A stretch of 64,000 nucleotides of DNA. It comes from an uncultured delta proteobacterium. Its GTDB lineage: Bacteria > Desulfobacterota > Syntrophobacteria > Syntrophobacterales > Syntrophobacteraceae. Both the position numbers and the translations under genes were made by a program. Positions 7,701 through 28,490 of this stretch are shown here, piece by piece (within the stretch, counting starts at the first letter, position 1; every line of letters begins with the position of its first letter). The stretch is taken from assembly GCA_963808625.1 (NCBI GenBank), contig CAWEHK010000021.1, positions 1-64,000 of the forward strand, in the 5' to 3' direction. Under the pieces are notes generated by a model. The model did not search any database. It was not told where the DNA came from and was given only the letters and a program-made list of their open reading frames with translations.

Positions 7701-8063
7701 GATCGGCTTTTCGATCAGTTTTTTGTTTTAAGGTCGCGTCATCGGACAACCTCATCGCTAAGCTAGCCTCATGGGTTGAAAGCTCTGGATTCGTGACCAA
7801 GTTCTGCTATGATGGACACATCTTTGACAGCTATTCGTCTGATCAGACCGAGTGGGGTGTGATCAGGGCGCGGGGACGCTCCTTTGGATCATAAGAGTAT
7901 GCCCGCACCTAAGGTTGGCCGCCTCTGGAGGTTCAGGAGGGAGGGGCTTGACGAGTTGGTCCGACGCGGTAGCGCAGCAGAAAAGACTGAAACACCCACT
8001 CTCCAAAACGCTGACAGCCGCCAAGCGTAAGTCAATTCTTGGCCTGCGGAGCTCTTGCACGCA

Positions 8064-8831
8064 ATGATTCGAGACCTTGGACTGTATAGCTCACGAAACA
8101 CTTCAAAAGGAGCCCTCATCGAAGAGGCAGCTCAGCTCTTAGGTCCCTTGTCAGCGGAAAGCTCTTTTCATGATATCAGGCGCGAGGCGCTTGAAGGCAC
8201 ATTACTCCGTCAGAGAGCACGTACAACGCGCCAAACGATTTGGCGCAGGCTGCACTATCGGCTCTTTTCACATGGTGTGCATTGGGTAATCGAGGATCTG
8301 AAAAAGGCTCTTCAGACAGGACACCATAGCCCTGAATTTGTTTCACTGGTCTACCTCCATTATGCCCTCAGAGATCGCTTGACGTTTGATTTTGTGACGG
8401 AGGTGGTGTGGCAGCACTGGACGAGCGGGATTCAGACCGTTAACAGAGATGACCTTCTATCTTACCTCGACCAGGCTGCTGAAACCCAGGATCAAATCAG
8501 AAAGTGGTCTGAAAGTTCGAGGCGAAAACTTGCTGCCAGCATCCTCACCGCCCTTCGAGACTTCGGAGTCCTTAAGGGCACGCGCGGTAAGAGAATCATC
8601 AGACCTCAGCTTCCGACTCCTACTGCGGAGCATCTCCTACGTATCCTTACCATTGAGGGGTTGCGCGGAAGTGAAGTGCTTTTCGATCGAACCTGGCGGC
8701 TCTTTCTTCTTTCTCCTGATGATGTTGCGCATGTACTTTCACAACTTGCTCAGACACAGCATATTCAATTCGAGCGCGCAGGCAGCACTGTTGTACTCGA
8801 AACACCGGCTGAATGGAGTGCTTCCTGGTGA
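8064..8831 (+). CDS. brxA: BREX BrxA-like protein (DUF1819)
   Basis: ~255 aa; YSSRNTSKGALIEE, WSESSRRKLAASILTALRDFG; first gene of the brx operon. Confidence 0.75.
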   Translation: MIRDLGLYSSRNTSKGALIEEAAQLLGPLSAESSFHDIRREALEGTLLRQRARTTRQTIWRRLHYRLFSHGVHWVIEDLKKALQTGHHSPEFVSLVYLHYALRDRLTFDFVTEVVWQHWTSGIQTVNRDDLLSYLDQAAETQDQIRKWSESSRRKLAASILTALRDFGVLKGTRGKRIIRPQLPTPTAEHLLRILTIEGLRGSEVLFDRTWRLFLLSPDDVAHVLSQLAQTQHIQFERAGSTVVLETPAEWSASW

Positions 8832-9398
8832 GCGATCGTGACTGGCGTTGGAAAATTGGGGAAGTGATCGAGCGGCTGCGTTCTCGCTACCAATACATTG
8901 GCAGGAAGACTGGGGCTCCTTTCCTGGCAATGGTTTATCCTGTGGAAGTTCAACTTGCTGTATTCGCTGAATGGCATGCTCAGAGCAGTGCACTTGAGCG
9001 TGATTTCGATGTTCGCACGATCGATGTTCTCGAACATAACTCAGCGTGTTATCTCGGATATCGGGTCGGAAAATATAGTGGATTGTCTGTCGGATCCGAT
9101 GCCTGGTTCGGACCCAATATCTGATCTAGGACAGCTCTGGGTCAACGCTGTCGCTGAAGCAGTGGGCAGCGCATTCCTCAACTCAAGGGCAAATAAACCG
9201 GTTGTCAGTATGGGACGGTTGGCCGCTTTGTATCCTGCCATCGGCCCACGCGATATCATGCAGGCGCTCTCGGACAGCAATCAAGCGACCATTAAGGGAC
9301 CAGTTATTGTTCTCATCCCCGGGAGCCTCGAAGGACCGAGGACTTACGCCTTCCTGGATATCAAGAAGGAATTCATGTACCGGGGCGACCTGCTATAA
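8828..9398 (+). CDS. brxB: BREX BrxB-like protein (DUF1788), frameshifted near 9040
   Basis: APFLAMVYPVE... joined to ...LAALYP...PVIVLIPGSLEGPRTYAFL..YRG; lies between brxA and brxC. Confidence 0.72.
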
Positions 9399-9418: not shown

Positions 9419-12400
9419 ATGCGAATCGCAGATCTGTTTGAAACCAGGGTAGAGGAAAAGATAGAGCCTGTCATAAAGGTCGGAGAGACCAAAGATGAGC
9501 GTAAGTTGGCGTCTGAGATTGGCAGTTATGTGGTCACGCCACTTATAGAGAAGTATTTGGATGATTATCTCGAGCACTATACAGAGAGCTTCCTCACTCA
9601 GACGACAGAGATCGGCGTTTGGATTTCAGGATATTTCGGATCAGGGAAATCGCATCTTGCTAAGATCATTGCTGTTCTTGCTGAAAACCGGAAACTGGTT
9701 GGCGTGCCTGCATGTGAGAGGTTCATAGCACGAATCCCTCCTCAAAGCTCCAGGCAAGGTTCGCTCCACCGCAGCCTGTCGCGCATGGATCAATCTGCTA
9801 CAAACATCCTCGCTTTTAACCTGAATACCATAGCAGATAGCAGGAGCCGCCCGCTGCCCAGCATTCTCCTTTCGCAATACTATCTATCTCGTGGCTACGG
9901 AGGGAACCTCATCTATGCACGGGTAATTGAAGCCGAGCTTGACCGGCAGGGAAAGCTTGAAGCACTGCACCGTGCTGTTGAGACTCGGGCGAACAAAAGC
10001 TGGCCTGATATTCAGCGCAACCTGTCATTTTATAGAAAGCACCTTTACGAGGCAGCCTGCGAAGTCGCTCCTGAAGTCTTTGAGAGCCCTCAAGATGTTG
10101 AGCGAGCATTGAAAGAAGCAGAACACGGTGAACTTTACAACGTTGGTTTCCTCATCGATACCGTGCTCGATGATCTCAGAAGACGCGAAAAGGAGGCCAA
10201 GAAGCCTCAGCGGATGCTCTTCGTATTGGACGAGTCCGGGCAGTGGATCGAGAACGAAGCGAGCCGTTTGGCCCAACTGCAGGCACTCATCGAAGAAGCC
10301 GCTATCAAGGGACAGGGCAGGATATGGGTCATTGTAACCACGCACGGAGATATGGGTTCCATATTCAAGGAAGCCCGCGCCCTCGAAGGGGACATGAAAA
10401 AAATAGAAGGCCGCTTCAGATTTAAATTTGGTCTGACTACGGAAAACATAGAGCTCGTTTTGGAAGACAGGCTTTTCAAAAAGGTAGTGGCCGGCAAGCA
10501 CCAGTTGGAACAGGTGTATTTGAATCGTGGCGGCACCCTGCGCGGACTGGGAGAGCTTGCTAACACCAGCCAGACGCTTCCCGCCTGCACTAAGGAGAAA
10601 TTCGTAACTTACTACCCTTTTTTCCCATACCAGGTTCACCTTATCCCCGAAATTGTAAAGTCTCTGCGCTCCAAAGGGGGGCGGGGCGAGCAGCTTTCCG
10701 GCTCCACACGCACCCTTCTGGCCATTACCCAGGATATTTTGAGAAGCGGACGGCGCCAATACCTTGATGAGGGCATAGGGGTTCTTGTCAGCTTCGATGA
10801 GATCTATGGCAATCTATCCGGCGAAGGGGAAGTCAGTCCGGATGTTCGCACTGAGCTCTCCCGCCTCAAGGATGTGATCCCGGGGGCTACGGAGCTTACC
10901 CCCAAGGTGGCGGAAGTCCTCTATCTCATCCGCGAAATTCCTTACATCCCCCGCACCAAAGACAACCTTGCGCGCCTGCTTTGCGATCGAATCGATGAGG
11001 ATCTGCCTGCGGTGTTGGCCCGCGTTGAACCTGAACTGGAACGGCTCATCAAAGCGAAGCTCGTAGCACGTATCGGGGAGGAGTACGAATTCCTTACTGG
11101 TGAACGGCGGACTTTTGAAGATGAAGTGGCCACCATCGAAGAACAATACCGTCAGCAGGACCGCGAACGTGGTCTTGTTGAGCACTTCATCTATGGTGGT
11201 GGTAAGGCGCACTGGCGCAAGTGGCTCGATTTCGAAACGGTCAGCCATCTTGGCATGGAGTTCCCATTCCGCCTTCAGATTGATGGTTTCGCTGTGCCGG
11301 GCAGACAGGGAGATATCGCCCTCAAAGTTTCCACCCCTCTTGCCGTGCTTGGGGCTATAAGTCTTGATGACCTTGAAAACCAGAGCCTCCGCTCCGACGA
11401 GCAAAACACGATCTTCTTCTACTCCGGAAGGGTGAAGGGCTTTGACCGAGAGATCACGCGGGACCTCGCAATGAAGGAGGTAATCGATAATTGGAAAGGT
11501 GATCCTCACCGTAGCGAGGATGCTCGAAAGCTTGCTCAGGAGCGGGAGTCCAACGACCTTCCCAAGCTCGAACGAAAAGTCGTCGAGGCCCTCAAGGAAG
11601 GAATTCGTTCCGGATGGACCATTTTCCGTGGGTCGAGCCGCTCTCTGGCGATCAAGCAGGGCCAGAAACCCAGTGATGCCCTGCGCACAGAGCTCAGCAC
11701 TTTCTGGCCGGTTCTATACCCCAAATTTGATCGCGTTCCTGTCCGCATAGTCAATGATCAGCGAGCCATTCAGGAAGTTTTGGCAGGGAGTAGTAATCCG
11801 AGCAAAGACGTTCTTTCCCTTAAGCTCTATGACAAGGCAGGTAAAATTGACGTTAACTGTCCACTCCTCGATGCCATCCGCATGTATCTCTCCACCGAGC
11901 AAAATGCCGGACGCCGGGTGTTGGGAAAGGATCTCGTCAGCTATTTCAGTGCGCCTCCCCACGGATGGGACCCAAATGCGGTCAGGATCGGTGTGGCGGC
12001 ATTCGTTCGCAGTGCCGCGGTCAAGATCTTGATCAACAAGAAGGCCTTCGCAAACCCCACCGATCGCGAGCTCGTGGATGCTCTGCGTGTCAGTCGGAGC
12101 TTTGATCGAGTTGAATGTGTGCTCGAGTTGGCAGATGTTGATCGGGAAGTCTTGACGGAAACACGCTCCTTCCTGATAAGCCTGACAAAGCAACGAGGCA
12201 TTGACGAAACCCCTGCCGCCATCAGCGAAGGTGCAGAAAGCCTTGCTGACTCTATCCTGGCCAGAGCAAGCACTATCAGACTCTGGGCAGGAGCTGCGCG
12301 CATGCCGCTACCCGAGTCGTTTCTCAACGGAGAAGATGCCTGGAAACGAGTGAAGGAGCTCTCCAATCCAGTGCACCGGGTAATTGAATTTCACGGAAAC

Positions 12401-13132
12401 CGCGAGCTCCTGGAGGAAGGCTGCAAGGCAATCGAACGACACGTGACATTCCAGACAGACAATGGCGCCCGGTTCACCGAGCTTCAACAAATGGTTACTC
12501 AGCTCGCTGGGATCGAACACCTTTTCGAACAAGACGGTATTGTCTGCAAACTCCTTGATGCATATAGAGCAACGGCTCAAGCTGCGGACTTTGCCGACAA
12601 GGAAACATGGAAGCAGATTCAGAGCCTTAAGGCCCAGGCGGTTTTGGATCTCCAGGGATTTGTCGAAGAGAAGCGAAACGAAGCCAGAGGGCGAGTTGAT
12701 GCCGTACTGAATGATCTCTCGGATGAACTGGACCGGCGCGGACTGAGTTCGGATTTGGAGACTGAGCTATCCGCACCGCTCCGCAACTTACGTGATGGCA
12801 TGGACGAAATCACGGCTCCGGTCAAGGCCGCAGCATTGGCCCAGCAAGTTGAAGCCGCCATTCGCGCAGTGGGGGAAAAAATCCTGAGAAAGGCTGCTGA
12901 GCAGGTAGAGGCTGATGCCGAGAGGGATAAGCCTGAGGAGGATGCTGCACAACCGGCCCAGCCAAAGGATAAGAGACCAGCTAACTCCCAGCGGGTTCAC
13001 ACCTTGCGAGTGGGCGAAGTGGTTACGGTGACCCGCGTGGCGACATTTGAAGATTGGGATAAGATCAAAGAGCGGCTAGACACCCGTGTCCGGGAGTTGT
13101 TGAACCAAGGCCTTCAGGTGGAGTTTGGCTAA
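9419..13132 (+). CDS. brxC: BREX P-loop ATPase BrxC
   Basis: 1237 aa; EIGSYVVT, GVWISGYFGSGKSHLAK (Walker A), LFVLDESGQW (Walker B), KIEGRF, YPFFPYQ. Confidence 0.92.
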   Translation: MRIADLFETRVEEKIEPVIKVGETKDERKLASEIGSYVVTPLIEKYLDDYLEHYTESFLTQTTEIGVWISGYFGSGKSHLAKIIAVLAENRKLVGVPACERFIARIPPQSSRQGSLHRSLSRMDQSATNILAFNLNTIADSRSRPLPSILLSQYYLSRGYGGNLIYARVIEAELDRQGKLEALHRAVETRANKSWPDIQRNLSFYRKHLYEAACEVAPEVFESPQDVERALKEAEHGELYNVGFLIDTVLDDLRRREKEAKKPQRMLFVLDESGQWIENEASRLAQLQALIEEAAIKGQGRIWVIVTTHGDMGSIFKEARALEGDMKKIEGRFRFKFGLTTENIELVLEDRLFKKVVAGKHQLEQVYLNRGGTLRGLGELANTSQTLPACTKEKFVTYYPFFPYQVHLIPEIVKSLRSKGGRGEQLSGSTRTLLAITQDILRSGRRQYLDEGIGVLVSFDEIYGNLSGEGEVSPDVRTELSRLKDVIPGATELTPKVAEVLYLIREIPYIPRTKDNLARLLCDRIDEDLPAVLARVEPELERLIKAKLVARIGEEYEFLTGERRTFEDEVATIEEQYRQQDRERGLVEHFIYGGGKAHWRKWLDFETVSHLGMEFPFRLQIDGFAVPGRQGDIALKVSTPLAVLGAISLDDLENQSLRSDEQNTIFFYSGRVKGFDREITRDLAMKEVIDNWKGDPHRSEDARKLAQERESNDLPKLERKVVEALKEGIRSGWTIFRGSSRSLAIKQGQKPSDALRTELSTFWPVLYPKFDRVPVRIVNDQRAIQEVLAGSSNPSKDVLSLKLYDKAGKIDVNCPLLDAIRMYLSTEQNAGRRVLGKDLVSYFSAPPHGWDPNAVRIGVAAFVRSAAVKILINKKAFANPTDRELVDALRVSRSFDRVECVLELADVDREVLTETRSFLISLTKQRGIDETPAAISEGAESLADSILARASTIRLWAGAARMPLPESFLNGEDAWKRVKELSNPVHRVIEFHGNRELLEEGCKAIERHVTFQTDNGARFTELQQMVTQLAGIEHLFEQDGIVCKLLDAYRATAQAADFADKETWKQIQSLKAQAVLDLQGFVEEKRNEARGRVDAVLNDLSDELDRRGLSSDLETELSAPLRNLRDGMDEITAPVKAAALAQQVEAAIRAVGEKILRKAAEQVEADAERDKPEEDAAQPAQPKDKRPANSQRVHTLRVGEVVTVTRVATFEDWDKIKERLDTRVRELLNQGLQVEFG

Positions 13133-13639
13133 TGGTTGGTCAGCACAAGAAGACGCTCAAAGGTCTAGCCCTTGATCTGCGTCATTTGCTGGAAGGCGTC
13201 TACAATGGCGATGGCCGGTGGCAACCGGGTGATCTTGAACAACGCCTTGCTACCATTGGTCTACGGCGGGGTCGCGACTCCGTCCCGGTGGATGAGTTGC
13301 CCCATCTTGGCCAGGAAGATAGGCGAGCCCGAGAAGTCGTTTCTGCGCAGCTTTGCCGATCTGCGTGCACCCGAAGAACCGGATGCCTCATTCAAGGGTG
13401 TTCTGCGCGAGACCACGATAGAAGCATTGGCGCATCTTGGACCAGGTGCTTTTGGGGAAATCAGCGGAGAGGTTGTTAACATTGTCCTTTTCTCACTGAC
13501 TAAGGCGGCTCCGAGCTCAGATCATCGCTTGACGGCATTTCGGCTCATTGGCCCCAAGAGCCCTGAGGAGAAGGATAGGTTATTGCGCCAAGCACTCAAT
13601 TCCATCAATAATGGCAATGACTCTAGGAGTGTCAACTGA
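13132..13639 (+). pseudogene. pglX: PglX N-terminal half with the methyltransferase core deleted
   Basis: N-terminus MVGQHKKTLKGLALDLRHLLEG...RRAREVV joins out of frame at ~13340 to FLRSFADLR...LAHLGPGAFGEISGEVVNIVLF (post-NPPY PglX motifs); no DPACGSG or NPPY motif; ends at its own TGA. Confidence 0.8.
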
Positions 13640-14085
13640 TGTCGAACATGCGGCAATCCTCAGGAGAGGACTATCCAGATGCAGCGAGAAAACATTACAC
13701 GGATGCACGCATCCTCATGAACAGGCGCCGTTATGATGGCGCTGCGTATCTGGCTGGATATGCGGTCGAATGTATCCTGAAAACCATCATTCAAATGAAC
13801 CAACCTTCCGGGGTGCCCATGATTCACGACATCAACACGTTGAGCAGGGACGCGCTGAGACTGGCAACCATGCCGTCTTCCAGAACGGCACGGTACGTTC
13901 CCAAGGGTTCTTCTTTCACGAGTCTTCCATACGGCAATCCGCCTGCAGGATGGAAAGAAACCCTTCGTTACCATTTTGAAGGAGCCATTCCGAAAACAAC
14001 GGCTTCTGCCTGGGTGGCGGAAGCCAAACGTCTTTATGAGCACGTGCTTTGGGGCCTAATCAAAGATGGTAAGGTGACGCTATGA
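13639..14085 (+). CDS. HEPN domain protein
   Basis: AARKHYTDARIL..RRYDGAAYLAGYAVECILK..HD..W..LRY; TGATG overlap with the pglX-N stop. Confidence 0.8.
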   Translation: MSNMRQSSGEDYPDAARKHYTDARILMNRRRYDGAAYLAGYAVECILKTIIQMNQPSGVPMIHDINTLSRDALRLATMPSSRTARYVPKGSSFTSLPYGNPPAGWKETLRYHFEGAIPKTTASAWVAEAKRLYEHVLWGLIKDGKVTL

Positions 14086-15404
14086 CTGCAAAGTTCAAAC
14101 ATATGGATGAGGCGCGCCACTCAGCGGTAATGCTTTTGATCTCTGCTTTGGAGAATGCCCCGCGTGACTGCAGAATGGTGCTGATCGAAGATCTTTATGG
14201 CAAGCTTCGCCTTGTAGTCTGGCCGGGAGGCGCACCTGAAAACTTGATCGATGATATTCGGAAGAAACTGGCTGAAGAGGCCCAAGGTGTCTGGTCGGAT
14301 GACCTCTGGACTGTGAGTAAGGACGTATCAGACGCCGACAAGTCTGTATATGAGAACATATGGAAGGAAAGCAAGCCACATCCGGATGAATCTCGCCTGC
14401 GCATCCTGGATCGTTACCGGTCACGTGGTGCATGGTTTTATCCACTGGATAAGCCTCCTTGGGGAACGCCAGGTCGCCCGACCACGAAGCAACCTCCTAT
14501 AGTGGTTTATTATTCCTTCAAGGGCGGCGTTGGCCGATCCACCGCACTCGCGGCCTTTGCCATCCATCGGGCGAGAGAGGGCGAGAGAGTGGCGGTTATT
14601 GATGCGGACCTTGACGCTCCTGGCATAGGCACCTTACTCGCTGCCGACGAGGAAGGAACAATGGCACGCTGGGGTGTAGCGGACTATATGCTCGAAAGAG
14701 CTCTTGGGCCTGTGGACTTCCGCGACTATTACCATGCCTGCCGCCGCGAGAAGGTGACAGGAAAAGGGGAAATCCTGGTCATTCCATCCGGTCGGATCGA
14801 CAGCGAATACCTTGGCAAGCTGGCTCGCCTGGATTTCGAACCACCGGGGCCTGAGGATAAGCAAAAGCATCCCTTTTTCATGCTCCTCCAGGACGTGCGC
14901 ACTCAGCTCCGCCCTCACTGGCTTCTCGTAGATCTCCGCGCAGGACTGGCCGAAACTGCCGGCATGGTTCTGGGTGGTTTTGCCCATTTGCACGTGCTCT
15001 TTGGAACCTCTTCCGAACAGAGCTGGCGTGGCTTGAGGCTGATCATCGAGCGTCTGGGTGCTCAGCGGGTCCGGGCAGATAAGCAGCAAGGCGATTGCGT
15101 GATGGTTCAGGCAATGGTTCCAAGAGGAACTGACCTGTATTTGCAGGCGACACAAAGATTTGCAGATAGAGCCCGAGATGAATTCGCTGAGCTTTACTAC
15201 GCAGAGGCCGACTCGGATAGTTTCTGGACTATTGAAGACGTAGAAAGCAGCGATGCACCACATGTTCCGGTTCCGATTCGTTATGACGAAATTTTGGCCG
15301 ATTTTCGCAATCTCGATGAGGTGGCTGGAGCGATTGCGGAATCTCCTGATTACCAGAGTCTTACCAACCGTATCCTCAACCGGTTCAGGGCTGACAAACA
15401 ATGA
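14082..15404 (+). CDS. ParA/MinD-like ATPase, KGGVGR variant, with N-terminal extension
   Basis: YYSFKGGVGRST, VIDADLDAPG, LLVDLRAG; ATGA overlap with HEPN gene. Confidence 0.85.
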   Translation: MTAKFKHMDEARHSAVMLLISALENAPRDCRMVLIEDLYGKLRLVVWPGGAPENLIDDIRKKLAEEAQGVWSDDLWTVSKDVSDADKSVYENIWKESKPHPDESRLRILDRYRSRGAWFYPLDKPPWGTPGRPTTKQPPIVVYYSFKGGVGRSTALAAFAIHRAREGERVAVIDADLDAPGIGTLLAADEEGTMARWGVADYMLERALGPVDFRDYYHACRREKVTGKGEILVIPSGRIDSEYLGKLARLDFEPPGPEDKQKHPFFMLLQDVRTQLRPHWLLVDLRAGLAETAGMVLGGFAHLHVLFGTSSEQSWRGLRLIIERLGAQRVRADKQQGDCVMVQAMVPRGTDLYLQATQRFADRARDEFAELYYAEADSDSFWTIEDVESSDAPHVPVPIRYDEILADFRNLDEVAGAIAESPDYQSLTNRILNRFRADKQ

Positions 15405-16873
15405 GCAAATTCAGAAAAGAGACACAGAAGACACTCCTGGATTTCCTTTCGGACCTTGGTTACGGTCAGGCAGAATCGGAACCAGGGGAGCTTTTCGTAC
15501 GCCGGTTCTATCCTATCAAGCAGCACCTTCGTGCCTTCGATCCCGATGTTATGCTTGTAGTGGGAGAGAGAGGAACAGGCAAATCGGCGCTCTTCAATGC
15601 GGTGTTCAGAAACGGACTGCTGTCGGCTCTGGCCCCTTTTGCCCCTGAACTGCGATTACCCTATAAGAAAACCGATCTCATCAAACTGATACCCGGATAC
15701 CCAATAGGGGCACAATTCCCCGATCCACGAGGCCTAAAGAACGCACTGAGGACACCGGATCAGGCTGTAGATCTTTGGTTCTCATACCTCATACGTGTTC
15801 TTAAAAAGGAGATAAGCGAGTCCAGGAAATTGAAATTTCTTGATCTTCCCGGAGGAGCTCCGGATCAAGTGCTCGATGCATTCCTAAAGTCGGGAAATGA
15901 GCCGTTACTCGCATTGGACCGATTGGACCAGGAGCTCCAGGAGGCAGATAAGTGGCTCTTTGTTGGTTATGACGAATTGGATACTTTGGGCGGTTTCGAT
16001 TGGGAAGCAATGGCGAAGGCCATCCAGGGCCTCGTTGCATTCTGGTCCAGTTATGCACGACGATGGCAGAGACTCCGGGCTAAGATCTTCCTGCGAACGG
16101 ATCTGTTTCGACGTCATGCGGGAATTGGGGGGGCCGACCTGGCCAAATTGGCCGCGAATCGGGTTGAGCTTGGCTGGAGTGATCAGAATCTATTCTCAAT
16201 GCTCATCAAGCGTATCGCGAACACTGATGACCAGCTATTCGATTACTGCAAGGGCGCTCGGATCCCTTTCAACAAGGAGCCACACAAAACATTCGGCCAT
16301 ATTCCGAACTTGAAAAGTGCAGAGGATGCCCGCCCCTTTATCGAACGTACTGTAGGACAATACATGGGTGCCAACCGAAACAAGGGGCAATGCTTCAATT
16401 GGGTTCTCGATCATCTGCGTGACGGCCACAAATGCGCCACGCCAAGAGCATTGGTCAGGCTCTTCGAACAGGCGGCTCAGAAGGAACGCGGTAATCCTCG
16501 TGCTACTCCTCCGAAACTCCTTCATCCCACATCTCTTCGCCAGGCTCTCGAAGACGTTTCAGCAGATCATGTGATCCAGGCTATCCACAATGAATGGCCA
16601 TGGCTGTATGGGGTAAGGGAGCGGATAGCGAGGGAAAGACTGGCTCCATGGAAACGACGCGAGTTGCAGGAGCTTCTCGATCGAAACTGGAACAGTTCAT
16701 GGGGACAAGGTGACAAGCACATTGGCCCGCCCGCGCAGACCGCAAGGGAGCTCATCGACTATTTGGTGGAGTTGGGCGTCTTCCGCGAGCGAACCAACGA
16801 TCGTATCGACGTTCCGGATATCTACCTGTTTGGGCTCGGTCTGCGCCGCAAGGGAGGCGTGAAGCGGAAATGA
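15401..16873 (+). CDS. P-loop ATPase (Sll1717-like/STAND-like)
   Basis: LVVGERGTGKSA, FVGYDELD, KIFLRTDLF, TPRAL, C-terminal VPDIYLFGLGLRRKGG; ATGA overlap with preceding gene. Confidence 0.8.
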   Translation: MSKFRKETQKTLLDFLSDLGYGQAESEPGELFVRRFYPIKQHLRAFDPDVMLVVGERGTGKSALFNAVFRNGLLSALAPFAPELRLPYKKTDLIKLIPGYPIGAQFPDPRGLKNALRTPDQAVDLWFSYLIRVLKKEISESRKLKFLDLPGGAPDQVLDAFLKSGNEPLLALDRLDQELQEADKWLFVGYDELDTLGGFDWEAMAKAIQGLVAFWSSYARRWQRLRAKIFLRTDLFRRHAGIGGADLAKLAANRVELGWSDQNLFSMLIKRIANTDDQLFDYCKGARIPFNKEPHKTFGHIPNLKSAEDARPFIERTVGQYMGANRNKGQCFNWVLDHLRDGHKCATPRALVRLFEQAAQKERGNPRATPPKLLHPTSLRQALEDVSADHVIQAIHNEWPWLYGVRERIARERLAPWKRRELQELLDRNWNSSWGQGDKHIGPPAQTARELIDYLVELGVFRERTNDRIDVPDIYLFGLGLRRKGGVKRK

Positions 16874-16942
16874 TGCAAGTCCCCACCAGCCTCTGAAGAA
16901 GGTCTTGTAGGACTGGAATCGTTTAATATCGAATATGATATA

Positions 16943-17293
16943 ATGGGCACAGTACGTAAAACAGATAAGCCTTTAGTCTGGCTGCACGGGGAAGTGAAAA
17001 CTCCTCCTTTTGGCCGTAATGCGCGGATGGAAGCAGGCTTGCTGCTGAGACAACTTCAGCAGGGCCAAAGCATTGGCATGCCACAGTCGCGCCCTATGCC
17101 GCAGGTTGGGGAACGATGCCATGAATTGCGCATCCGTGACGAGAACAGGAACTGGAGAATCGTGTACCGTATCGATGAAGATGCCATAGTGATAGCAGAG
17201 GTTTTTGATAAAACCACAAGACAGACACCTGCCTCTGTCATCGAAAACGGCCGGAGACGTTTGAATCGATACAATCGCGACCAGCAGGAGTGA
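16943..17293 (+). CDS. RelE/HigB-like toxin (phage Gp49-like)
   Basis: KPLVWLHGEVKTPPF..GMPQSRPM..CHELRIRD..WRIVYRID..VFDKTTRQTP. Confidence 0.85.
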   Translation: MGTVRKTDKPLVWLHGEVKTPPFGRNARMEAGLLLRQLQQGQSIGMPQSRPMPQVGERCHELRIRDENRNWRIVYRIDEDAIVIAEVFDKTTRQTPASVIENGRRRLNRYNRDQQE

Positions 17294-17297
17294 GGCA

Positions 17298-17624
17298 ATG
17301 GACAAGAGGAAGCAAAAGCGTCTGGAAACAAAAGGCTGGAAGGTGGGTTCAGCAGCCGAATTCCTGGAGCTGACGCCGGAAGAGTCCGCCCTGGTAGAGA
17401 TCAAGCTGTCACTGAGCCGTAAGCTGCGGGAGCGACGCGAAAAGCAAATGACCCAGGCAGAGCTGGCAAAGAGGATACAATCGAGCCAGCCACGTATCGC
17501 AAAGGCTGAGCGGGGTGATAGTTCCGTATCCATTGAACTGCTGATTCGGGCAATGCTCGCCGCCGGTGCGACTGCCAAAGACATTGGCGAGGCAATAACC
17601 GGGGCTGGGACAGATAATATATGA
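17298..17624 (+). CDS. XRE-family HTH antitoxin
   Basis: GWKVGSAAEFL..MTQAELAKRIQSSQPRIAKAE; directly follows the toxin. Confidence 0.85.
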   Translation: MDKRKQKRLETKGWKVGSAAEFLELTPEESALVEIKLSLSRKLRERREKQMTQAELAKRIQSSQPRIAKAERGDSSVSIELLIRAMLAAGATAKDIGEAITGAGTDNI

Positions 17625-17643
17625 GTCCTTCGAGGGTACGATC

Positions 17644-17895
17644 ATGTGTAGAATTGTCATGGAAATACTGGATGAATCGTTGCTGGCTTTAAAGGTTTTG
17701 CCGGAAAATGTGGGTGCTGAGCTCCGAATGGCTGCAGCTGTCAAGTTCTATGAATTGGGGCGTTTGTCATCAGGCGCCGCGGCCCGTCTGGCCGGGGTCC
17801 CACGGACCCTGTTTCTGTCCAGACTTGCCGATTATGGTGTTGATACCTTCAAGTTGACTGAAGAGGAGCTCAATCGGGAGACTCGCCTTGGCTGA
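17644..17895 (+). CDS. UPF0175-family antitoxin-like protein
   Basis: AAAVKFYELGRLSSGAAARLAGVPRTLFL..YGV. Confidence 0.85.
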   Translation: MCRIVMEILDESLLALKVLPENVGAELRMAAAVKFYELGRLSSGAAARLAGVPRTLFLSRLADYGVDTFKLTEEELNRETRLG

Positions 17896-18376
17896 AGTCG
17901 TATGCAACAATTCTCCACTCCAGTATCGTCACCAGCTCGGATTGCTGCATATTCTTCCCCTACTGGCCGGGCGGATTGTGGTCCCTCCGGCCGTCGTAGC
18001 GGAAACTGAGGAAGGGCAACGCCGCGGAGTCAATCTACCCCATCTTGCAGAGCATGACTGGCTGAAGGTACGAAAACCGTCTTGCATCGATGCGCTTCAC
18101 CTGGTTTTCGATCTTGGCCCCGGTGAGACACAGGTGCTGGCGCTCGCTCTGGAGCTGCCCGGTGCCGTCGTCGTTTCGGACGACGCCCTTGCCCGGCGCG
18201 TTGCCGAATCACTGAAATTCCCGTTGACCGGCACGCTTGGGCTTCTGCTCGACGCCGAACGCGCCGGCATCATCACCGCGGTTACTCCACTCATTGATCA
18301 TTTGAAGACATTGGGTTGCCGACTGGCGCCCCAAACCTCCGAGGCCGTCCTCAAGCTTGCCGGAGAACCCCTATGA
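17888..18376 (+). CDS. DUF3368 PIN-like protein
   Basis: VVCNNSPL..VPPAVVAE..DLGPGETQVLALA..DDALARR..TGTLGLL; usual partner of UPF0175. Confidence 0.85.
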   Translation: MAEVVCNNSPLQYRHQLGLLHILPLLAGRIVVPPAVVAETEEGQRRGVNLPHLAEHDWLKVRKPSCIDALHLVFDLGPGETQVLALALELPGAVVVSDDALARRVAESLKFPLTGTLGLLLDAERAGIITAVTPLIDHLKTLGCRLAPQTSEAVLKLAGEPL

Positions 18377-21153
18377 TGCAACCAGTCCAGAGTGTTCTCT
18401 TCCGCCCGCTTCAGACGCGCTTTCTCGATATACCGCAAGCGCCTTTGTGTTACTGGCTGCGCGAGCGTTTTTTTGAACTGCTGGCAGACAGAACTCTTGG
18501 CGATGTAGCTGATGTATGCCAAGGTCTTGCTACGGCTAATGACCCTCGATTCGTTCGAATGACCTGGGAAGTCCTACCAAGCAGTTGGAGCTCATCTGCA
18601 CGTGATCGAAGGTGGGTGCCTTTTGAGAAGGGGGGCGGCTATGGCAGGTGGTTCGGACATCATTGGTGGACCGTGGATTGGCAGTACAATGGGATGAGAA
18701 TTAAGGCGTTCCCGAACTCCGTTGTTCGTAACGAGCAGCACTACTTCAAGGAAGGCTGGATTTACAGCTACATGGCTAGAGGTAGTCTCGGATTGAGATA
18801 CCTGGACGAACAAACTGTCTTTTCACACCTTGCGTCTGCAATATTTTTCCATGATGAAGACACTCCCGGCTCTGCAATAACAAACTGCAGGTTCGCCAGT
18901 GCAATCGGACGGTCACTTAGCGCAAAGATCCAACTGAATGAGAGTTATGTGTCTCGCATCCCCTTCCCGAGTAACTTCAACAACGATCTTTTGGCAGTGA
19001 GTCAGCAAGACTCAATCCTACTAAAACGCTATCTTGTCGGCCAGGACCCGGCAGAACGCTCATTCGATACTCTATCGCTTACGAAGTTCTCTGCTTTTAA
19101 GATTGGCGGAGCAGTAACAGCTGTTCTCCACACCCTTGAGGGCTACTCCGAACATATCGTCTTCAAGGCCTATGGCCTCGATAGTGCTTCCATGGCCGCC
19201 GTTCTCGATGAGACAGGTGCTCCTGCCGGCTGGTTTCCGCTGATTCAAAGCTACGATATATTTCTTGATCTCCCATCGGACCTTCAACCATATGGATTAC
19301 CAAGCGAGCTCGCCGAATTTTTTAAGAACCTTCACCGGGTGGACCCCCATGCCATCGGCTTAGCCGACCTGAAGAGCCGTCTTCGGCTCCTCTACGAAGC
19401 TGGACCAGGAGCCAGGACAGACGGAGAAGAGGTTGAGAGCGTAGAAACCACAGACGAAGATGATGAGCAGACAACCGCCGGTGCACACATCCCCATTCCT
19501 GCCGAAACCTTCATCGAGGAGCTCTCCCAGAAACTGGAGATCCATCCCATCTCCGTATACTGGATGCTCAGGGAGGGAATTGAAAACGAAGGCTGGCGCT
19601 GCTTGCCTGAGGAACGGCGTATTACAGCAGATCGCATGACTGTATTGATCCTGAGTCTGCTTGGCCATCGCTGGCCACGGCAGGTTGAAGCCGGTGAGCC
19701 GATTCCCGACTGGGCCGATTCCGAAGGGATCATCCCGCTGACCGAGGGCGCGGCAAAGCTCTCACTGCTGGAGACTCTACGAAAACGGATGCCTGCCGAG
19801 TTTGAAGTGCCGGAAGCAACGGCATTCGAGCGAGAATTCTCGGCCGTTATGGGCAAGAACCTCGATCAATGGCTTGAGACGGAGTTCTTCAAACACCACA
19901 CGAAACAGTTCAAGAAGCGCCCTATCGCCTGGCAGATGCAGAGTGGTCCGTTTTCCAAAAAGTGTAAGCCCGCTTTCGCCTGCCTTGTTTACACCCACAA
20001 GCTCGATCTCGATACCTTTCCCAAGCTTCGTACCCAATATGTCGGTCCTCTGCGACAACGATACGAAACCGAACTCCACGGCATCGAAGCTGTTCCGTTG
20101 GATGCAAGGAGCGAGCGCCAGGAAAAGCGTCGCGTCTTGCTCGAAAATCAGATCCAGGAGCTGAAAGACTTCGACTCGAGGCTTGAGCAAATTGCCAATG
20201 AAGGATTCGGCCCCTGGGGACTTCGTCCCGCACTGCGGCAGGCTGCCATCGATGATGCCATGTTGCACCTCAAAGCTGTCTGGTTGGATCGATTGCAGGA
20301 GACCATTGCCAAAGGCCCCTTGCCGGAATGGATCCATCTGGCCCGGGAGACAGCTCTTGACTGCCCGATAGAGGACTGGATAGCAGATGCCTTTTCACAT
20401 TTAGCCCACCACTGTTCCAGATTGGGGCCCAGACCACCGGACCAGGGACAGACGCCCAATGACCCCGAAGCAACGGACCTTGCCGGGCTCATCGGTTCGC
20501 ACAGCACAGAAATGATCAGGGGGGCACTGAATCTGGGATGCAATGAATGGTGGCAGAAGATCAACCGTCACCTCTTTCGGCCCTTACGTGAAAAGATCCA
20601 AGCGCTCAGGGAAGAGATCAAGCAACTCAGCACTGAGGCAAATGATTTCCGTTTTTCCTCTCCGATAAGCTCACAAACGCTAAGAGACCTCGACAGCCAA
20701 ATCCGGCATCTCAAAGCTCAGATCAAGCAGCAGAAGAATCAACTGGACGATCAGGTATCCCGAGCGGCCAAAGTACGCGAAGCCATAGAAAGATGGGAGT
20801 ACGCGGAAGCCGAAACCTGGGAGCCCTGGCTCGCCGGCCAGCCATTGTACGATTCCATTTCAAGCCTCGATGGAAAACAACGCCCACCGCTCACAGTGGA
20901 GGAATTCGTCCGGCAGGAAAGCATTTACGCACCGGATATCAATGATGGTGTCCGGGTCAATATTGCTCCCATCCAGAAAGCAGGACTGCTCCCCTACGAA
21001 GTCTTGCCAGCCAAAGACATGGACAAAGCCATCTCCGACCGCATTCAGTGGCGTTCCGACGAGCGCCGCTGGTGCAGAGAGGGTAAACTGCCCCAGCCTG
21101 GATGGTGGCGAATCAAAGAAGAAGGCCCATCAGGGGAGACCAAGAATGTATGA
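18373..21153 (+). CDS. pglX: PglX C-terminal half (target-recognition and C-terminal domains) as a stand-alone gene
   Basis: Begins RFLDIPQAPLCYW; QGLATANDPRFVR, WVPFEKGGGYGRWFG, FFKHHTKQFKKRPIAW, DINDGVRVNIAP; ATG at 18373 overlaps the DUF3368 stop (ATGA). Confidence 0.85.
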   Translation: MMQPVQSVLFRPLQTRFLDIPQAPLCYWLRERFFELLADRTLGDVADVCQGLATANDPRFVRMTWEVLPSSWSSSARDRRWVPFEKGGGYGRWFGHHWWTVDWQYNGMRIKAFPNSVVRNEQHYFKEGWIYSYMARGSLGLRYLDEQTVFSHLASAIFFHDEDTPGSAITNCRFASAIGRSLSAKIQLNESYVSRIPFPSNFNNDLLAVSQQDSILLKRYLVGQDPAERSFDTLSLTKFSAFKIGGAVTAVLHTLEGYSEHIVFKAYGLDSASMAAVLDETGAPAGWFPLIQSYDIFLDLPSDLQPYGLPSELAEFFKNLHRVDPHAIGLADLKSRLRLLYEAGPGARTDGEEVESVETTDEDDEQTTAGAHIPIPAETFIEELSQKLEIHPISVYWMLREGIENEGWRCLPEERRITADRMTVLILSLLGHRWPRQVEAGEPIPDWADSEGIIPLTEGAAKLSLLETLRKRMPAEFEVPEATAFEREFSAVMGKNLDQWLETEFFKHHTKQFKKRPIAWQMQSGPFSKKCKPAFACLVYTHKLDLDTFPKLRTQYVGPLRQRYETELHGIEAVPLDARSERQEKRRVLLENQIQELKDFDSRLEQIANEGFGPWGLRPALRQAAIDDAMLHLKAVWLDRLQETIAKGPLPEWIHLARETALDCPIEDWIADAFSHLAHHCSRLGPRPPDQGQTPNDPEATDLAGLIGSHSTEMIRGALNLGCNEWWQKINRHLFRPLREKIQALREEIKQLSTEANDFRFSSPISSQTLRDLDSQIRHLKAQIKQQKNQLDDQVSRAAKVREAIERWEYAEAETWEPWLAGQPLYDSISSLDGKQRPPLTVEEFVRQESIYAPDINDGVRVNIAPIQKAGLLPYEVLPAKDMDKAISDRIQWRSDERRWCREGKLPQPGWWRIKEEGPSGETKNV

Positions 21154-22485
21154 CACACCCGATGATCTGTTGCGTGAGATTCTCGCGGGCGAAGATTCCT
21201 TCCTTGACTGGAAAGAAGTATTCGTGAAGGGGGGAGGATTCGTTTCGCGGGGAAGACGGCTCACGCTGATGAAAAGCCCGCCATGGAACTGGCCAAGGAC
21301 CTGACCTGCTTCGCCAACACCGAAGGTGGAGTAATCGTCTTCGGTGTGCGGAAAGACAGAGAGCGTGTCGGCATTCCTGAGGATCAGATGGAAGCGCTTC
21401 AGAGAGAGATCGTGAATGTGGCCCAGAACAATATCGAACCATCACTCGGCCACCTGTTGGTATTTGACAGGGTTTTCATCCCGGACTCAGCAGGAGTTCT
21501 TCGGCTGTGCCTGAAGCTTGAGATCAAGAAGGCACTCTACAGTGTCCATGCACCGCGAGGGAGGATGCCTTACTGGCGTATTGCCGACCATTGTCATGAA
21601 ATGACCTTGGAGCAGCAAGCCAGAATGTTCGAACGCCGCGGGATGATGCTCCCTTTTGAGGAACGGCCTGTTTTTGGGGCCACGCTCCGGGATCTCAACA
21701 CACCCGGTTTCCTGGCCTATTATGAAATGCGCTACGGGGGTCCCTTCGATCCCACAGCGATCCCTCTGGAAAGACTCCTGCAAAACCTCAAGCTTGCTGC
21801 ACAGGACGAAACAGGGGCATTGCATCCCACCGGACTGGGTTTGTTGCTTTTGTCCTCACGTCCGGACCAATGGCTTACCGGGGCTTTTGTGGATCTGGTC
21901 GTATATAGCGGCATGGTTCCTGATGCTGACAGCCAGAAGGATGCCAAGAGCATCCACTGGCCAATTGTTGAGCAAATTGAACGGACCATGGACTACTTGC
22001 GCCTCTCACCCTACCTTCCAACCGCAGCCGAGAAGAACCATCAGGGCCGACTGGAGCATCCCGCCTATTCCCTCCGTGCTTTACAGGAAGCTGTGGTGAA
22101 TGCTCTTGTTCACCGTGACTACAGTACCCTTGGTTCACAGGTGCGGATGTTTATCTTTCCAGATCGGATTGAGATCTCAAATCCCGGCAGACTCCATAAC
22201 ACCCTGCAACCTGCAGACCTCTTTGCAGGGTGCCAACCGGTGCGTCGCAACCAGATGCTGGCAGGATTCCTGAGAGAATATGTCAGCCCGATTACTCATC
22301 GTTCGTATATGGAAGGACGCGGTGAAGGTTTTCTCACCATGGTCCGTGAGTGCGAGCGCATTTCGGGAAAACGGCCGGATTTGGAGATCATTGGTGATAG
22401 CGTTCGATTGACCATTTGGGGTGCTTTCAATTCTTCAAATGAATCCCTGGATACGATTGTGACGGATTATGTCAACCAAGGATAG
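21146..22485 (+). CDS. AlbA_2/Schlafen domain + HATPase-like (RecG-C) protein, frameshifted near 21235
   Basis: GEDSFLDWKE..LAKDLTCFANTEGGVIVFGV; ALQEAVVNALVHRDYS, DRIEISNPG. Confidence 0.85.
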
Positions 22486-24968
22486 CTTTCAGGATTGGCT
22501 CTTAGAGCAAATTGAATTGGTGCTGGGCAGCAAGACGGTGGCGCCACCGTTGCTCGTCTGGTGTGACCCTAATCGGGAATGGCTTGAGCTCCTGCGTAAA
22601 GCAGCAGCCTGTGGTGGGTTCGAATTATGGGCACCTCCGTCTGAGCATGAGCTGATCGTTAGGACTCGTTTTTATGACTCGGAGAGCGCACCTCGGGTAG
22701 TCTGGCTGCCATGTGCCCGTGACGAAATCACCTGGTTCAAAGTGTTTGAGCTGGAAGCTGAAGCTGTTTGGGAGAGAAGTCTTCTTGAGGCGCTACGGGA
22801 ATATGGTGTTCGTATTCCGCGCGAATACGAACACGACTTGATCTCCCTTCTTCCAAGCCATGCATGTAAGTGGTTCGAAGAACCGCTCAACACATGGAAA
22901 GATCTGACTCCTGGCTCTGCTAAAGGGGTTCTCATCGATGACCATCGAATGCTCGAAGTGTTGGCAGGAGAGAAAGGCGAGTTTGAACAACTCGAGACGA
23001 GAGGAACGGTTCGGCGTTTTTATACGTCGTGCGGTAGAGGATTTCGGGCTCCCCGATCCCACGGGCATGGCGGAAGATAGCTGGCGTGTGGCAGCCACGG
23101 CAAGATTGCTCGCAACCGAGGCAGCCCACTGCTGTCCTCAAAACCCTCCCCGAGAGGGCGAGAGCATTATTCCAAGAGGTCTCCCTCGCGAAAACGCGCT
23201 GAAACATCTTAAGATGTGGCAAAACCATATCCGGTTCATACCATCATTCGAGAGGCTGGTGGAGGCGGCGGACAAGACGCTAGGCCTGCCCTACTGGGCA
23301 AGGAATCAGGATACTCCGCCACGCTCAAAGAGCTCACGGGCCGTGGAAGAGACATTGTTCACTCAGATGGCCGAGCGTTTTGACCGGATTGAGGAGATCG
23401 ATCTGCTGACCAGGGAACTGGAACAGCATATTCAGGATTTCCAGGATCGGTCAGTCAGTTTCTGGGGGCGGGTTGCCACTCACCGAATCGGATGGCGCCA
23501 CCTTGAGCAACTCGCCGAAGCAGCCAGTCTGCTCGTTGAAAATGCCGGTATCGAACAAACCTTTAAGACGGCTAAAGATGCAATCACCTGGTACGTCCAT
23601 AGCGGCTGGATGCTCGACCAGGCTGGCGAGCTCCTTTTCATTGAATCCCCAGAGTTGCCAACGCAGCTCCATCGCGTCCGTGCCAGGCTACGCCGAGGTT
23701 ACCTGCGCAGAGTCGATCAGGTGGGTCGTACTTTCTCCGAGCTGTTGATAAAGGGCGGCGAGGAGGTTTTATCGCTTCCATCAGCAGGCGAAGCGGTCAT
23801 CGGTGAGATCGAGCGCAGCAAGACGCCGACTGCTCTGGTTTTCCTCGATGCGTGTAGCCTGCAGTTCGGACACAGGCTGGCGGCAATCATCAACAAAGGC
23901 GAACCAGCGGAGCGGGCGACGATCAGGACGGCCATTGCGCCAATCCCCAGCATTACAGCTCTTGGGATGGCTTTCGCCCTGCCTGTGGAGCGAAGGCAGC
24001 TCCATGTTGTATTTTCAGAAGAAGAAGGCGATTTCGGGTTAACAGCTAACGGCTTTGATGGCAACCTGAGACTGGCCAAGGAGAGGCGCAGGTGGCTGAG
24101 CGCTTATTTTGATGTTAAGGACTTCCTGACCATTGCTGATGTACTTGACAGTGAGAAACTCAAACCCGCAGGGAAGGCGCGGCGTCTGATTATCATAGAG
24201 GGTGATGAGTTCGACAAAGAGGGGCACGAAGGGCAGCTCGAGCTCACAGGGGCTGATGAGCATCTGGAACGTTACGGACAGGCGTTTCGTAAGCTCAAGG
24301 CAGCAGGTTACAACCGCATCATCGTTGTCACGGATCATGGTTTTTTTCACTGGCAGCCGGATGCGGACGAAGTTGAAGACGCAAAGCCCGACGGGGAAGT
24401 GCTCTGGAGCTCTCGGCGTGCAGTTATCGGCCGAAACCTTAAACACATGAGCGCGATCCACCTGCCGGTTCCATGCTCCGGTCTGGAAGCCATGGTTCCT
24501 CGCAGCATAAACGCCTTCAGGACCTACGGCGGTCTTGGCTATTTTCACGGTGGCGCGACACTGCAGGAACTGATCATCCCAGTCCTGGTAGCTCATTGGC
24601 CGGCAAAGGCTGCCAAGATTCATGTCGTATTGAAACCTGTCGGACATATTACCAGTGAAATGCCTCGCATTCAGGTCGAAGCGGGAACTCAAGGGCAACT
24701 TACTGTTTATCCTGACGGGTCCAAGCTGGCCCGCAGGGTTGCTGTAAAGGTCCGGGAGCCGTCTTCAGGAAAGCTTGTATTTCGTCATGCAGTCGCCATC
24801 ATAGTTGAGCCCGGCGGCAAGACCGCAACGGTCCAGCTACAGCTCGTGGAACCAAGACCAGGTCTTGCTTACGGTACTAAACTTATGGTGGAAGTTCTCG
24901 ATGCAGATGATGAGGAGCTCCTCGCCCGTGAGGAAATCATACTGAAGGTAGATATCGATGAATGGTAG
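22469..24968 (+). CDS. pglZ: BREX PglZ phosphatase-family protein, frameshifted near 22995
   Basis: VWCDP N-terminus; VFLDAC, PSITALGM, VVTDHGF, YFHGGATLQE. Confidence 0.9.
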
Positions 24969-27156: not shown

Positions 27157-27699
27157 CTAACTGCCTGAGGCGGGTATCCTCACCTCAACCCAGTGTTCCT
27201 TGTGGTCGTCAACAAGCGGGATGGTCTTATCGGGTTGCTCGATGCCGTCCACGGTTACGCGCATCGCACCATCGCCGGCAGGCGTTTGCAGGACTGCGAT
27301 ATGGTAGACCGTCTCCCGATAGCGGTAGTGCATCGTGAACCCCTTCCAAGCCGCAGGGAGGCACGGCCTGAAACGCAGTTTATCCACCTCGAGTCTCAGC
27401 CCCAGGAGGGATTCCACGATCAGCCGGTACATCCAGCCGGCCGAGCCCGTGTACCACGTCCAGCCGCCGCGGCCGGTATGCGGCGGTACCGCATAGACGT
27501 CGGCGGAAGCGACGTAGGGTTCCACTTTGTAGGTAGCGGTCTCCTCGGTTGATCGGGCATGGTTCACCGGGTTGATCATGGTAAAGAGCTCCCACGCCCG
27601 CCGGTTGTCCCCCAGGCGAGCGAAGGCCATGGCCGCCCAGATGGCCGCATGCGTGTACTGCCCGCCGTTTTCTCTAACTCCCGGGACGTACCCTTTGAT
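27157..27699 (-). pseudogene. Second, shorter 3' remnant of the GH94/NdvB gene
   Basis: Close but non-identical copy of ~4818-5341; cut at KGYVPG, where IS-like sequence begins. Confidence 0.9.
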
Positions 27700-28490
27700 A
27701 TGAGAACTCTCGGAATTGAAATCCGAGAGCCCATTGGTTGTTGAAGGCGGTTCGGGTTGGTGTGGCGGGGGTGTTTTGCGGTGGTTTGGGGGGGCATTGG
27801 GTGGGGATAGACGGTCGGAGGTCGGTCAAAACGGGTGATCCTGGGTCGAGTTGCGGGGCATTCCGGAAACAAGGGGAACAGCTCGGGTGTTCGGTCCGAA
27901 AGGGGCTTTCGGCCGGGCGAAGGTTATTTTGATTCAGTTTGGCAGCAGCAATCCTACATTTTGACTCCTATCGTTATCCGCTGTTGAAGAATTCCTCGCG
28001 GTAAATGATGCCGATCATGCTCAGGGTCTGGGCCAGGAGCTTCTTCCTGGAGGACCGTTTCACGGCTTCCAGATTGCGCACCACGGCATGTTCGACGATG
28101 TTCGCCAGAGTCAGGCGAATCAGTCCATAGCTGGCGTTTCGGCATGATCGATCCAGTTTGCAGGTGTCATTGAGGGCGTTGCAGCGCTCGGTGGCGCTGC
28201 GCTCTTTGTAGAGCTCTTTAAAGCGCTGACTGTCGCGAGGGATGGGGGGATAGAGTCGCGGGTCGGTATCGGATTTGATGTAGACCAGAGGGGCGAGAAC
28301 GCTTTCGGGTGCACAGTCCTTCTGTTGCGGGCAATCCTCGAGGTGCATGACATAAACTGATTTGCCGTCGCGATGGGTATTGCGTTTTGCCGGGCAGCCA
28401 TAGACATGAGTGTGGCGGCTTTCCTGGTACTGATGGTGGCGCATGCGCATTCCTTGCGGACAGAGGGGAACGCCGTCGCTGTGAACTTAG
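27700..28490 (-). mobile_element. IS remnant: C-terminal DDE transposase fragment plus downstream end
   Basis: ORF 27974-28450 with Cys-rich segment, DPRLYPPIPRDSQRFKELYKERSATERCN (YxxRxxxERxN signature); abuts the truncated GH94 copy. Confidence 0.7.

Follow-up and report, generated by a model that had tools for sequence, protein, structure and literature searches.

Recurrent splitting of pglX around variable defence genes in type 1 BREX operons and a probable two-subunit PglX

The window analysed here (G000:C21:1-64000) is the whole 64,000-nucleotide stretch at the start of contig CAWEHK010000021.1, from the assembly GCA_963808625.1 (G000) of an uncultured delta proteobacterium of the family Syntrophobacteraceae. 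Profile searches revealed a type 1 BREX (bacteriophage exclusion) operon in the order brxA-brxB-brxC-pglX pieces-AlbA/HATPase gene-pglZ-brxL. The type 1 core genes brxA, brxB, brxC, pglX, pglZ, and brxL are all present in order, with a weak and frameshifted match for brxB, but PglX, a single polypeptide of methyltransferase (MTase) and target-recognition domain (TRD) in type 1 BREX, corresponds here to two open reading frames (ORFs) 4.7 kb apart. PglX homology ends at 13639 and picks up again at 18373. Comparative sequence analysis shows that this layout is real and widespread, and it is quite probable that intact relatives encode a working two-subunit PglX with cargo genes inside its specificity cassette. 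A first-pass annotation, made from the sequence of the window alone, had proposed such a two-subunit PglX. This interpretation is supported for the lineage, in which pglX is repeatedly broken at one and the same hinge residue, both halves are intact, the defence cargo varies, and a docking model agrees with it; it is not supported for the copy in the window, where the MTase half is deleted.

Recurrence of the split among relatives

For the C-half, the best 120 of 574 homologs were surveyed. Among these, 49, counting that of the window, are shorter than 1000 aa and start 16-41 residues ahead of the IPQ-type motif, and 60 are full length. For the N-half, an intact copy served as query, and the best 120 of 278 homologs were surveyed, with the length limited to 380-1211 aa, which excludes fused forms. 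A half-length N gene is also recorded for a cultured strain (WP_447972353.1). Sixty-three of them end within 60 residues of FRL[IV]GPKSPEEK, and the NPPY/DPPY and S-adenosylmethionine (SAM) motifs are kept in all 63.

An alignment-based scan gave 160 loci, consisting of 80 of 126 genome matches and 80 of at least 347 metagenome matches. The TRD head is not covered in 56 loci, and three end at a contig edge. MTase and TRD are adjacent in 85 loci, a count that includes duplicates between the two collections and some frameshifted copies. Seven loci have no upstream MTase, and in six of these the C-half starts on its own behind other genes. The remaining nine are split by 1.6-6.2 kb. These nine of the 94 resolvable loci carry six different cargo sets:

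L009, L017, L018, and L113 (not independent): HEPN-ParA-STAND
L029: STAND alone
L054: HigB/HigA-like pair, AlbA, and PDC-S06 ATPase
L061: HigA-like and AlbA
L066: Ppl-like ATPase and AlbA
L151: HigA-like and FRG

The N-half is open in eight of the nine. The C-half starts sit just ahead of the same strand, and many of them either overlap the stop codon upstream or follow a purine-rich motif. N tails and C leaders of the split proteins are variable extra sequence. The first-pass annotation had asked whether relatives split at the same residue, and had named uniformly single-ORF relatives as the case against it. Both protein surveys show a recurrent break at the same point, the split loci carry variable cargo, and with 9 of 94 loci split, the relatives are not uniformly single-ORF.

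In the 10 genomes searched, neither a close full-length pglX copy nor an alternative close partner for the N- or C-half was found. No recombinase or flanking repeats were found beside the partial pglX genes in the window or in the four other split loci scanned for repeats. There is no integrase, no intron-like gene, and no direct repeat at the slot ends in the five loci scanned. A single-protein scan of genome contigs gave no match; the alignment-based scan did find relatives. No relative of this PglX lineage was found in viral contigs and plasmids. Among relatives of G000, three weak matches were obtained in 60 genomes and two in 400, one of which is the same DNA as L009 and was counted once.

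Several candidates were rejected as splits. L008 and G694 are frameshifted assemblies. In L087, insertion-sequence-like genes lie upstream, inside the MTase. The breaks in G616 and G722 are near residue 810.

RAMP-family (Cmr-like) genes lie behind a stand-alone N-half in L190 (11589-13492) and upstream of a stand-alone C-half in L072 (120-1112), which suggests a CRISPR type III-like module as cargo. Two tandem pglX copies are present in one operon in L069 (10-6953). P0150 is an N-half that runs on, at the split point, into a minimal nucleotidyltransferase domain, resembling the outcome of a fusion with a cargo gene. In L197 (1929-9289), four further copies of the pglX 3' end are dispersed downstream of pglX among small toxin-antitoxin-like and ATPase genes, which suggests repeated cassette insertion at the end of pglX.

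Position of the break and predicted docking

Alignments to solved BrxX, as PglX is called in Escherichia coli and Salmonella, place the break at E. coli residues 637-640, the start of the MTase/TRD hinge. The hinge loops are described at 638-675, between the two jaws of BrxX, in the available text of Drobiazko et al. (10.1101/2024.04.12.589305). In that of Went et al. (PMC11341690), the hinge is placed at 654-659 and Type I specificity subunits are structural neighbours of the C-terminal domain. Against these spans, the C protein therefore begins slightly ahead of the hinge proper. The first-pass annotation had put the break at the boundary between MTase and TRD. The break is indeed at the hinge, but the C-half is not a pure TRD; it carries the predicted last strand of the MTase sheet.

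The N-half (residues 190-680) and the C-half (residues 1-420) of L017 were modelled as a pair with own alignments supplied. The halves scored 0.80, against 0.00 for the best control, on a scale whose mark was reached by 116 of 157 solved complexes and by 2 of 215 mismatched pairs. Model runs agree in at least 75% of contacts, and the predicted local distance difference test (pLDDT) value of the partner is at least 81. The tightest predicted contacts are those of N residues 647-653 with C residues 13-18, in antiparallel orientation, and of C residues 27-29 with N residues 581-590. The first strand of the C protein is thus predicted to complete the MTase sheet by strand complementation. A single-sequence AlphaFold model of the fused P0126 was discarded (pLDDT 36).

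Selection and exchange of the specificity cassette

The ratio of nonsynonymous to synonymous substitution rates (dN/dS) is 0.10-0.18 for the N-half in all 10 pairs, 0.14-0.18 for the C head in the least saturated pairs, and 0.24-0.30 beyond the TRD among L017, L018, and L113. When alleles of matched core identity are compared, identity over the last 20 MTase residues is 80-83% within the split group and 33-49% within the fused group. The C head is 74-83% identical among split alleles and 38-43% among fused ones, a comparison biased on the C side by hit ranking. This higher conservation at the junction fits either a docking constraint or shared descent; the latter may explain it because part of the TRD is also more alike in split alleles.

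In a tree of the MTase core with 173 rows (66 split and 107 fused), the split or fused state requires at least 25 changes, 18 of them forced by starred branches, compared with about 53 for shuffled labels. L006, L059, L064, L069, and L091 were excluded for their broken ORFs, and further loci, L054 among them, because they do not cover the core. The tree has no true root, and gain and loss are not told apart. The tree of 90 junction-proximal columns is poorly resolved, with 27 changes, compared with 25 and 29 for the control regions. It neither supports nor excludes a single origin of the split, and it does not settle the direction or the number of origins.

The fused P0250 and P0251 fall in the same 90% cluster as the split P0121. 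Compared with the split L113, they are 99% identical at residues 1-550 and 95% from residue 1050 on, and only 32-40% across the junction and TRD. The split L029 and the fused L023 show the same pattern in DNA, being alike outside and divergent across the junction and TRD. Between L017 and L018, only the TRD is swapped. The cargo genes of L009 and L018 are more alike than their pglX halves. These sequence comparisons show the split and its cargo behaving as one allele of a swappable specificity cassette, since the flanks of fused and split alleles are nearly identical and the differences are confined to the MTase 3' end, the junction, and the TRD.

The first-pass annotation had called the two-subunit form stable and its junction a hotspot for accessory defence genes. 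Intact halves are recurrent, but fused and split alleles alternate among near-identical backbones. Variable defence cargo is found at the junction, but this is not the only such site: in five loci where pglX is fused, the same modules lie between brxC and pglX, the HEPN-ParA-STAND trio in L025, L112, and L116 and the UPF0175-DUF3368 pair in L084 and L089.

A second PglX lineage

The genome of L017 also carries an E. coli-like pglX (L189:4735-10654), 27-41% identical to the first lineage and split at the same site. The gap holds an aspartyl-protease-like gene and a DUF1016 nuclease gene. Among the homologs listed, 23 of 120 for the N-half end at the split site, and 19 of 150 for the C-half start there, keeping the strand ahead of IPGSPIAYW. 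A plasmid search with the second-lineage N-half gave 268 records, of which 60 were listed without gene lengths, and these do not distinguish split from fused forms.

The operon of the window and its damaged pglX

The features of the operon are as follows, all on the forward strand:

8055..8831, +, brxA (Pfam BrxA, E 1.7e-26; PADLOC BrxA)
8828..9398, +, brxB (weak BrxB matches in Pfam and PADLOC; one-base frameshift near 9033)
9419..13132, +, brxC, 1237 aa (NF033441 BREX_BrxC, 599 bits, cut-off 400)
13132..13341, +, pglX N-half remnant, 5' piece, about residues 1-70 (77% identical to P0147 residues 1-70)
13340..13639, +, pglX N-half remnant, 3' piece, last 99 codons (90% identical to P0147 residues 590-688; PADLOC PglX matches)
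13639..14085, +, cargo 1, HEPN protein (PDC-M28A; HINPO-type; Pfam HEPN, E 2e-5; PDLC04558, E 3.6e-15)
14082..15404, +, cargo 2, KGGVGR-motif ParA-like NTPase (PDC-M28B; NF047398, 164 bits; PDLC04559, E 2.6e-58)
15401..16873, +, cargo 3, Sll1717-family (ORC/CDC6-STAND-like) ATPase (PDC-M28C; NF047389, 107 bits; PDLC04561, E 8.5e-64)
16943..17293, +, cargo 4, RelE/ParE-like (Gp49) toxin (PF05973, E 7.9e-10)
17298..17624, +, cargo 5, helix-turn-helix (HTH) antitoxin-like protein (HTH_3, E 1.7e-8)
17644..17895, +, cargo 6, UPF0175 protein (PF03683, E 2.9e-22)
17888..18376, +, cargo 7, DUF3368 protein (PDC-S70; PF11848, E 1.3e-10; PDLC05071, E 1.1e-45)
18373..21153, +, pglX C-half, 926 aa (NF033452 positions 656-880; 48 other stand-alone homologs with the same start point)
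21146..22485, +, Schlafen/AlbA_2 and HATPase_c_4 gene (Pfam; frameshift near 21234)
22469..24968, +, pglZ (profile matches; one extra base near 22996 in the alignment with L111)
24958..27057, +, brxL (TIGR02653, 754 bits)

The TAA of brxC overlaps the ATG of the pglX N-half. The N-half reading ends with ...AHLGPGAFGEISGEVV...GPKSPEEKDRLLRQALNSINNGNDSRSVN and its stop at 13639. The two ORFs described in the first-pass annotation, an N-half with its own stop and a C-half with its own start, are seen in the sequence, as are the stop/start overlaps at the outer junctions (TGATG at 13637-13641 and ATGA at 18373-18376, where the stop of cargo 7 overlaps the start of the C-half). The C-half consists of a docking strand and hinge, TRD, spacer, and C-terminal domains. 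The N-half, in contrast to what was proposed, is not a whole MTase gene; it has its own stop but spans only 508 nt (13132-13639). About 70 N-terminal codons are joined out of frame to the last 99 codons. Compared with P0147, the closest intact N-half, about 519 codons are absent, including DPACGSGHFL and NPPY. MTase motifs I (GxG) and IV (NPPY) are thus deleted here, in contrast to the 63 stand-alone N-half homologs, which all keep both. Because the codons with the SAM-binding and NPPY motifs are missing, this copy as assembled cannot methylate; lacking its catalytic core, it is likely to be inactive.

It is rather unlikely that the 1.55-kb gap is an assembly error and that the locus is intact in the strain. 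G000 is indeed rich in indels: 24 of the 89 orthologous matches with two congeners have a frameshift, with a few antisense or duplicate ORFs among those counted. However, deletions over 150 nt were found in none of 106 orthologous queries, and no copy of the missing segment was found elsewhere in the G000 assembly. The deletion is more likely to be real, because large deletions are atypical of this assembly. Two DNA read runs, which share 7-8% of words and represent contigs of relatives, gave no joint across the slot or the deletion and do not settle the matter.

brxB, the AlbA gene, and pglZ each carry a single-base frameshift. Given the frameshifted fraction elsewhere in G000, these three are probably assembly errors, and other frameshift findings in G000 are likewise likely to be errors. 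Related contigs have a frame-keeping base count at two of the three sites. They lack one base at 9033/9034 in brxB, and a related contig has one extra base behind 21234 in the AlbA gene. The AlbA frameshift (21226-21234) lies at a run of six G, pointing to slippage or a read error.

The seven genes between the halves were noted in the first-pass annotation, and ORFs and profile searches confirmed them, all on the same strand. They comprise the HEPN-ParA-STAND trio, a RelE-like/HTH pair, and a UPF0175/DUF3368 pair. The DUF3368 protein is presumably PIN-like. In cargo 2, about 135 unannotated residues precede the ParA domain. The cargo was said to be coupled, which applies to part of it. Four junctions overlap (ATGA/TGATG) and a fifth shares 8 nt, but genes 3 and 4 lie 69 nt apart, genes 4 and 5 are 4 nt apart, and genes 5 and 6 are 19 nt apart. 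As had also been noted, no transposase was found among the cargo genes with Pfam, and no repeat pair flanks the slot. The cargo and N tail show 83-86% DNA identity to those of L009, L017, L018, and L113; no such closeness is seen for brxC, pglZ, and brxL of the window.

The BREX island lies between the two copies (95%) of a 520-bp direct repeat, at 4818-5341 and 27177-27699, which correspond to the 3' end of a GH94 gene. Contig C35 holds a 98% copy of an insertion-sequence-like stretch located at 27702-28488. No tRNA was found in the window, and promoter and terminator scans of the window gave chance level only.

Proposed mechanism and alternative explanations

In intact relatives, the proteins of the MTase gene and of the TRD/C-terminal gene would reassemble into one methyltransferase. 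In L017, residues 12-18 of the C protein (VVFRSRQ, its first strand) would pair in antiparallel orientation with residues 647-653 of the N protein, its final strand, and the PQAPLCYW segment would pack on the MTase, replacing the covalent hinge. The specificity cassette may be swapped by homologous recombination whose endpoints lie in two conserved parts, the MTase core and the spacer/C-terminal region. An incoming split-type cassette would bring a stop codon, cargo genes, and a new start, and the exchange of specificity would thereby deliver accessory defence genes into the brxABC-pglX transcript. Start/stop overlaps would keep the C gene translated. In G000, a later deletion of about 1.55 kb may have switched BREX off, with the cargo left intact.

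Several points weigh against a working two-subunit PglX. Of the 94 resolvable loci, 85 are fused. None of the nine split loci is free of cargo, a pattern that fits insertion damage too, and broken copies exist (the N-halves of the window and of L054, and the C-half of L052). Most half-length proteins come without genomic context, and some, such as P0010 and P0190, may be fragments from contig ends or frameshifts. All loci examined are from metagenome assemblies and not closed genomes. Co-folding, a check suggested in the first-pass annotation, supports docking of the intact halves of L017, but the model, run with own alignments, may have passed through resemblance to solved single-chain BrxX, and the pass indicates compatibility and not binding. 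The dN/dS values of the backbone may have accumulated in the fused state, because cassettes swap; of the regions compared, the split cassette contains the short head only, and saturation affects many pairs. In the second lineage, a clean split was found in 1 of 34 matches in a sample of 301 genomes, and it is less common in that clade.

Disruption of pglX is also common, and truncated pglX is read as phase variation in the available parts of PMC9122589 and PMC9716671. Cargo insertion might accordingly inactivate pglX, with the C-half as a silent store of TRDs and function restored only after recombination to a fused gene. The frequent interchange of fused and split alleles and the broken split copies, the window included, fit such an OFF state. 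It is nevertheless unlikely. Each C-half has its own start just ahead of the same strand, the catalytic motifs are kept in all 63 stand-alone N-halves, the C head is under purifying selection, no recombinase or flanking repeats were found in the loci scanned, and damage is not expected at one residue in two lineages that are 27-41% identical.

It is very unlikely that both halves are expressed without forming a joint methyltransferase, the C protein acting alone as a DNA binder or as a decoy for DNA-mimic proteins and the N protein having another partner. Ocr binds BrxX via the TRD and C-terminal domain only, according to the available text of 10.1101/2024.04.12.589305, and the C-half of the window is open despite the deleted N-half. 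The most conserved segments of the split alleles are, however, the two predicted docking segments, which the model places together, and the 10 genomes hold no other close partner for either half. Excision of the cargo, or its removal from RNA to give a single PglX chain, is extremely improbable. The halves are colinear and together complete, but the five loci scanned offer no integrase, intron-like gene, or direct repeat for it, the cargo varies freely in content and length, variable additional sequence makes up the N tails and C leaders, and fused neighbours have a different junction and TRD instead of a re-joined one.

Tentatively, with somewhat less than an even chance, the two-subunit reading can be extended. 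BREX may have repeatedly freed its specificity domain as an HsdS-like subunit that clips on by a donated beta strand and is exchangeable or acts in trans, with the gap riding in the cassette, so that swaps can deliver anti-phage genes. Should the two-gene arrangement be active, some of the pglX genes called "disrupted" would be functional, and DNA clamping would not require a covalent hinge, with consequences for the licensing of methylation and restriction by BrxX. The natural cut point at about 637-640 of BrxX could be tested in E. coli and would permit swapping specificity with one small gene. The slot would be a fixed address for mining defence genes. The window copy itself is a poor test object.

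Comparison with known systems

The single-chain PglX/BrxX proteins of type 1 BREX from E. coli HS (PDB 9ewz/8zek) and Salmonella (8c45/8q56) share the operon order brxA-B-C-pglX-pglZ-brxL and the order of gamma-class MTase, TRD, spacer, and C-terminal region. Type 1 BREX is also characterised by m6A on one strand of a non-palindromic motif and by phage exclusion. In the split loci, in contrast to the single-chain proteins, there are two genes, cut at about 637-640, with cargo inside pglX, and proteins of the lineage of the window are longer, 1400-1620 aa when fused.

In the available text of PMC9716671, Ca. Regnicoccus frigidus has two truncated pglX genes of 583-615 aa, together a full PglX. 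They lie at contig ends and were read as phase variation and a non-functional gene. Compared by length only, they fit the same break; that text describes no recurrence, docking, or cargo slot. For Brevibacterium casei, PglX was proposed to be two proteins with programmed inversions (PMC9881135, available in part). There, the break comes after the variable region, which leaves the TRD on the MTase protein, where inversions vary it. In the present lineage, pglX is broken ahead of the TRD, and no invertase or repeats were found in the loci scanned.

Catalysis and recognition are likewise on separate polypeptides in Type I HsdM/HsdS (available text of PMC12707154) and in the A and B proteins of Type IIB BcgI. 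Such separate catalytic and specificity genes are found in the nine split loci and L189. They differ from Type I in having one TRD-aligned region instead of two, in the C protein predicted to complete the MTase sheet, and in the BREX context; no hsdR was found among the operon genes scanned.

Defence genes nested in BREX (BrxU, PARIS-like ATPase/DUF4435, HEPN, PIN, and Schlafen) are likewise co-transcribed in the operon, but between core genes and not inside pglX, as far as the available parts of PMC12839542 and PMC9009780 describe them. The words "split" and "fission" are absent from the main-text parts of PMC12839542 covered. Literature searches returned no paper describing a recurrent, cargo-filled split of pglX ahead of the TRD. 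Cargo genes 1-3 have the order of HINPO, namely HEPN, ParA with an N-terminal extension, and ORC/CDC6-STAND-like ATPase, as given in the available text of bioRxiv 10.64898/2026.10.19.760177. HINPO, which is further marked by an inactive nucleotidyltransferase domain at the ParA N-terminus, probably equals PADLOC PDC-M28, judging from gene order and domains. The half-length PglX models of PADLOC, PDLC02525 (607) and PDLC02516 (593), match the two halves end to end, and such proteins are therefore already in reference sets.

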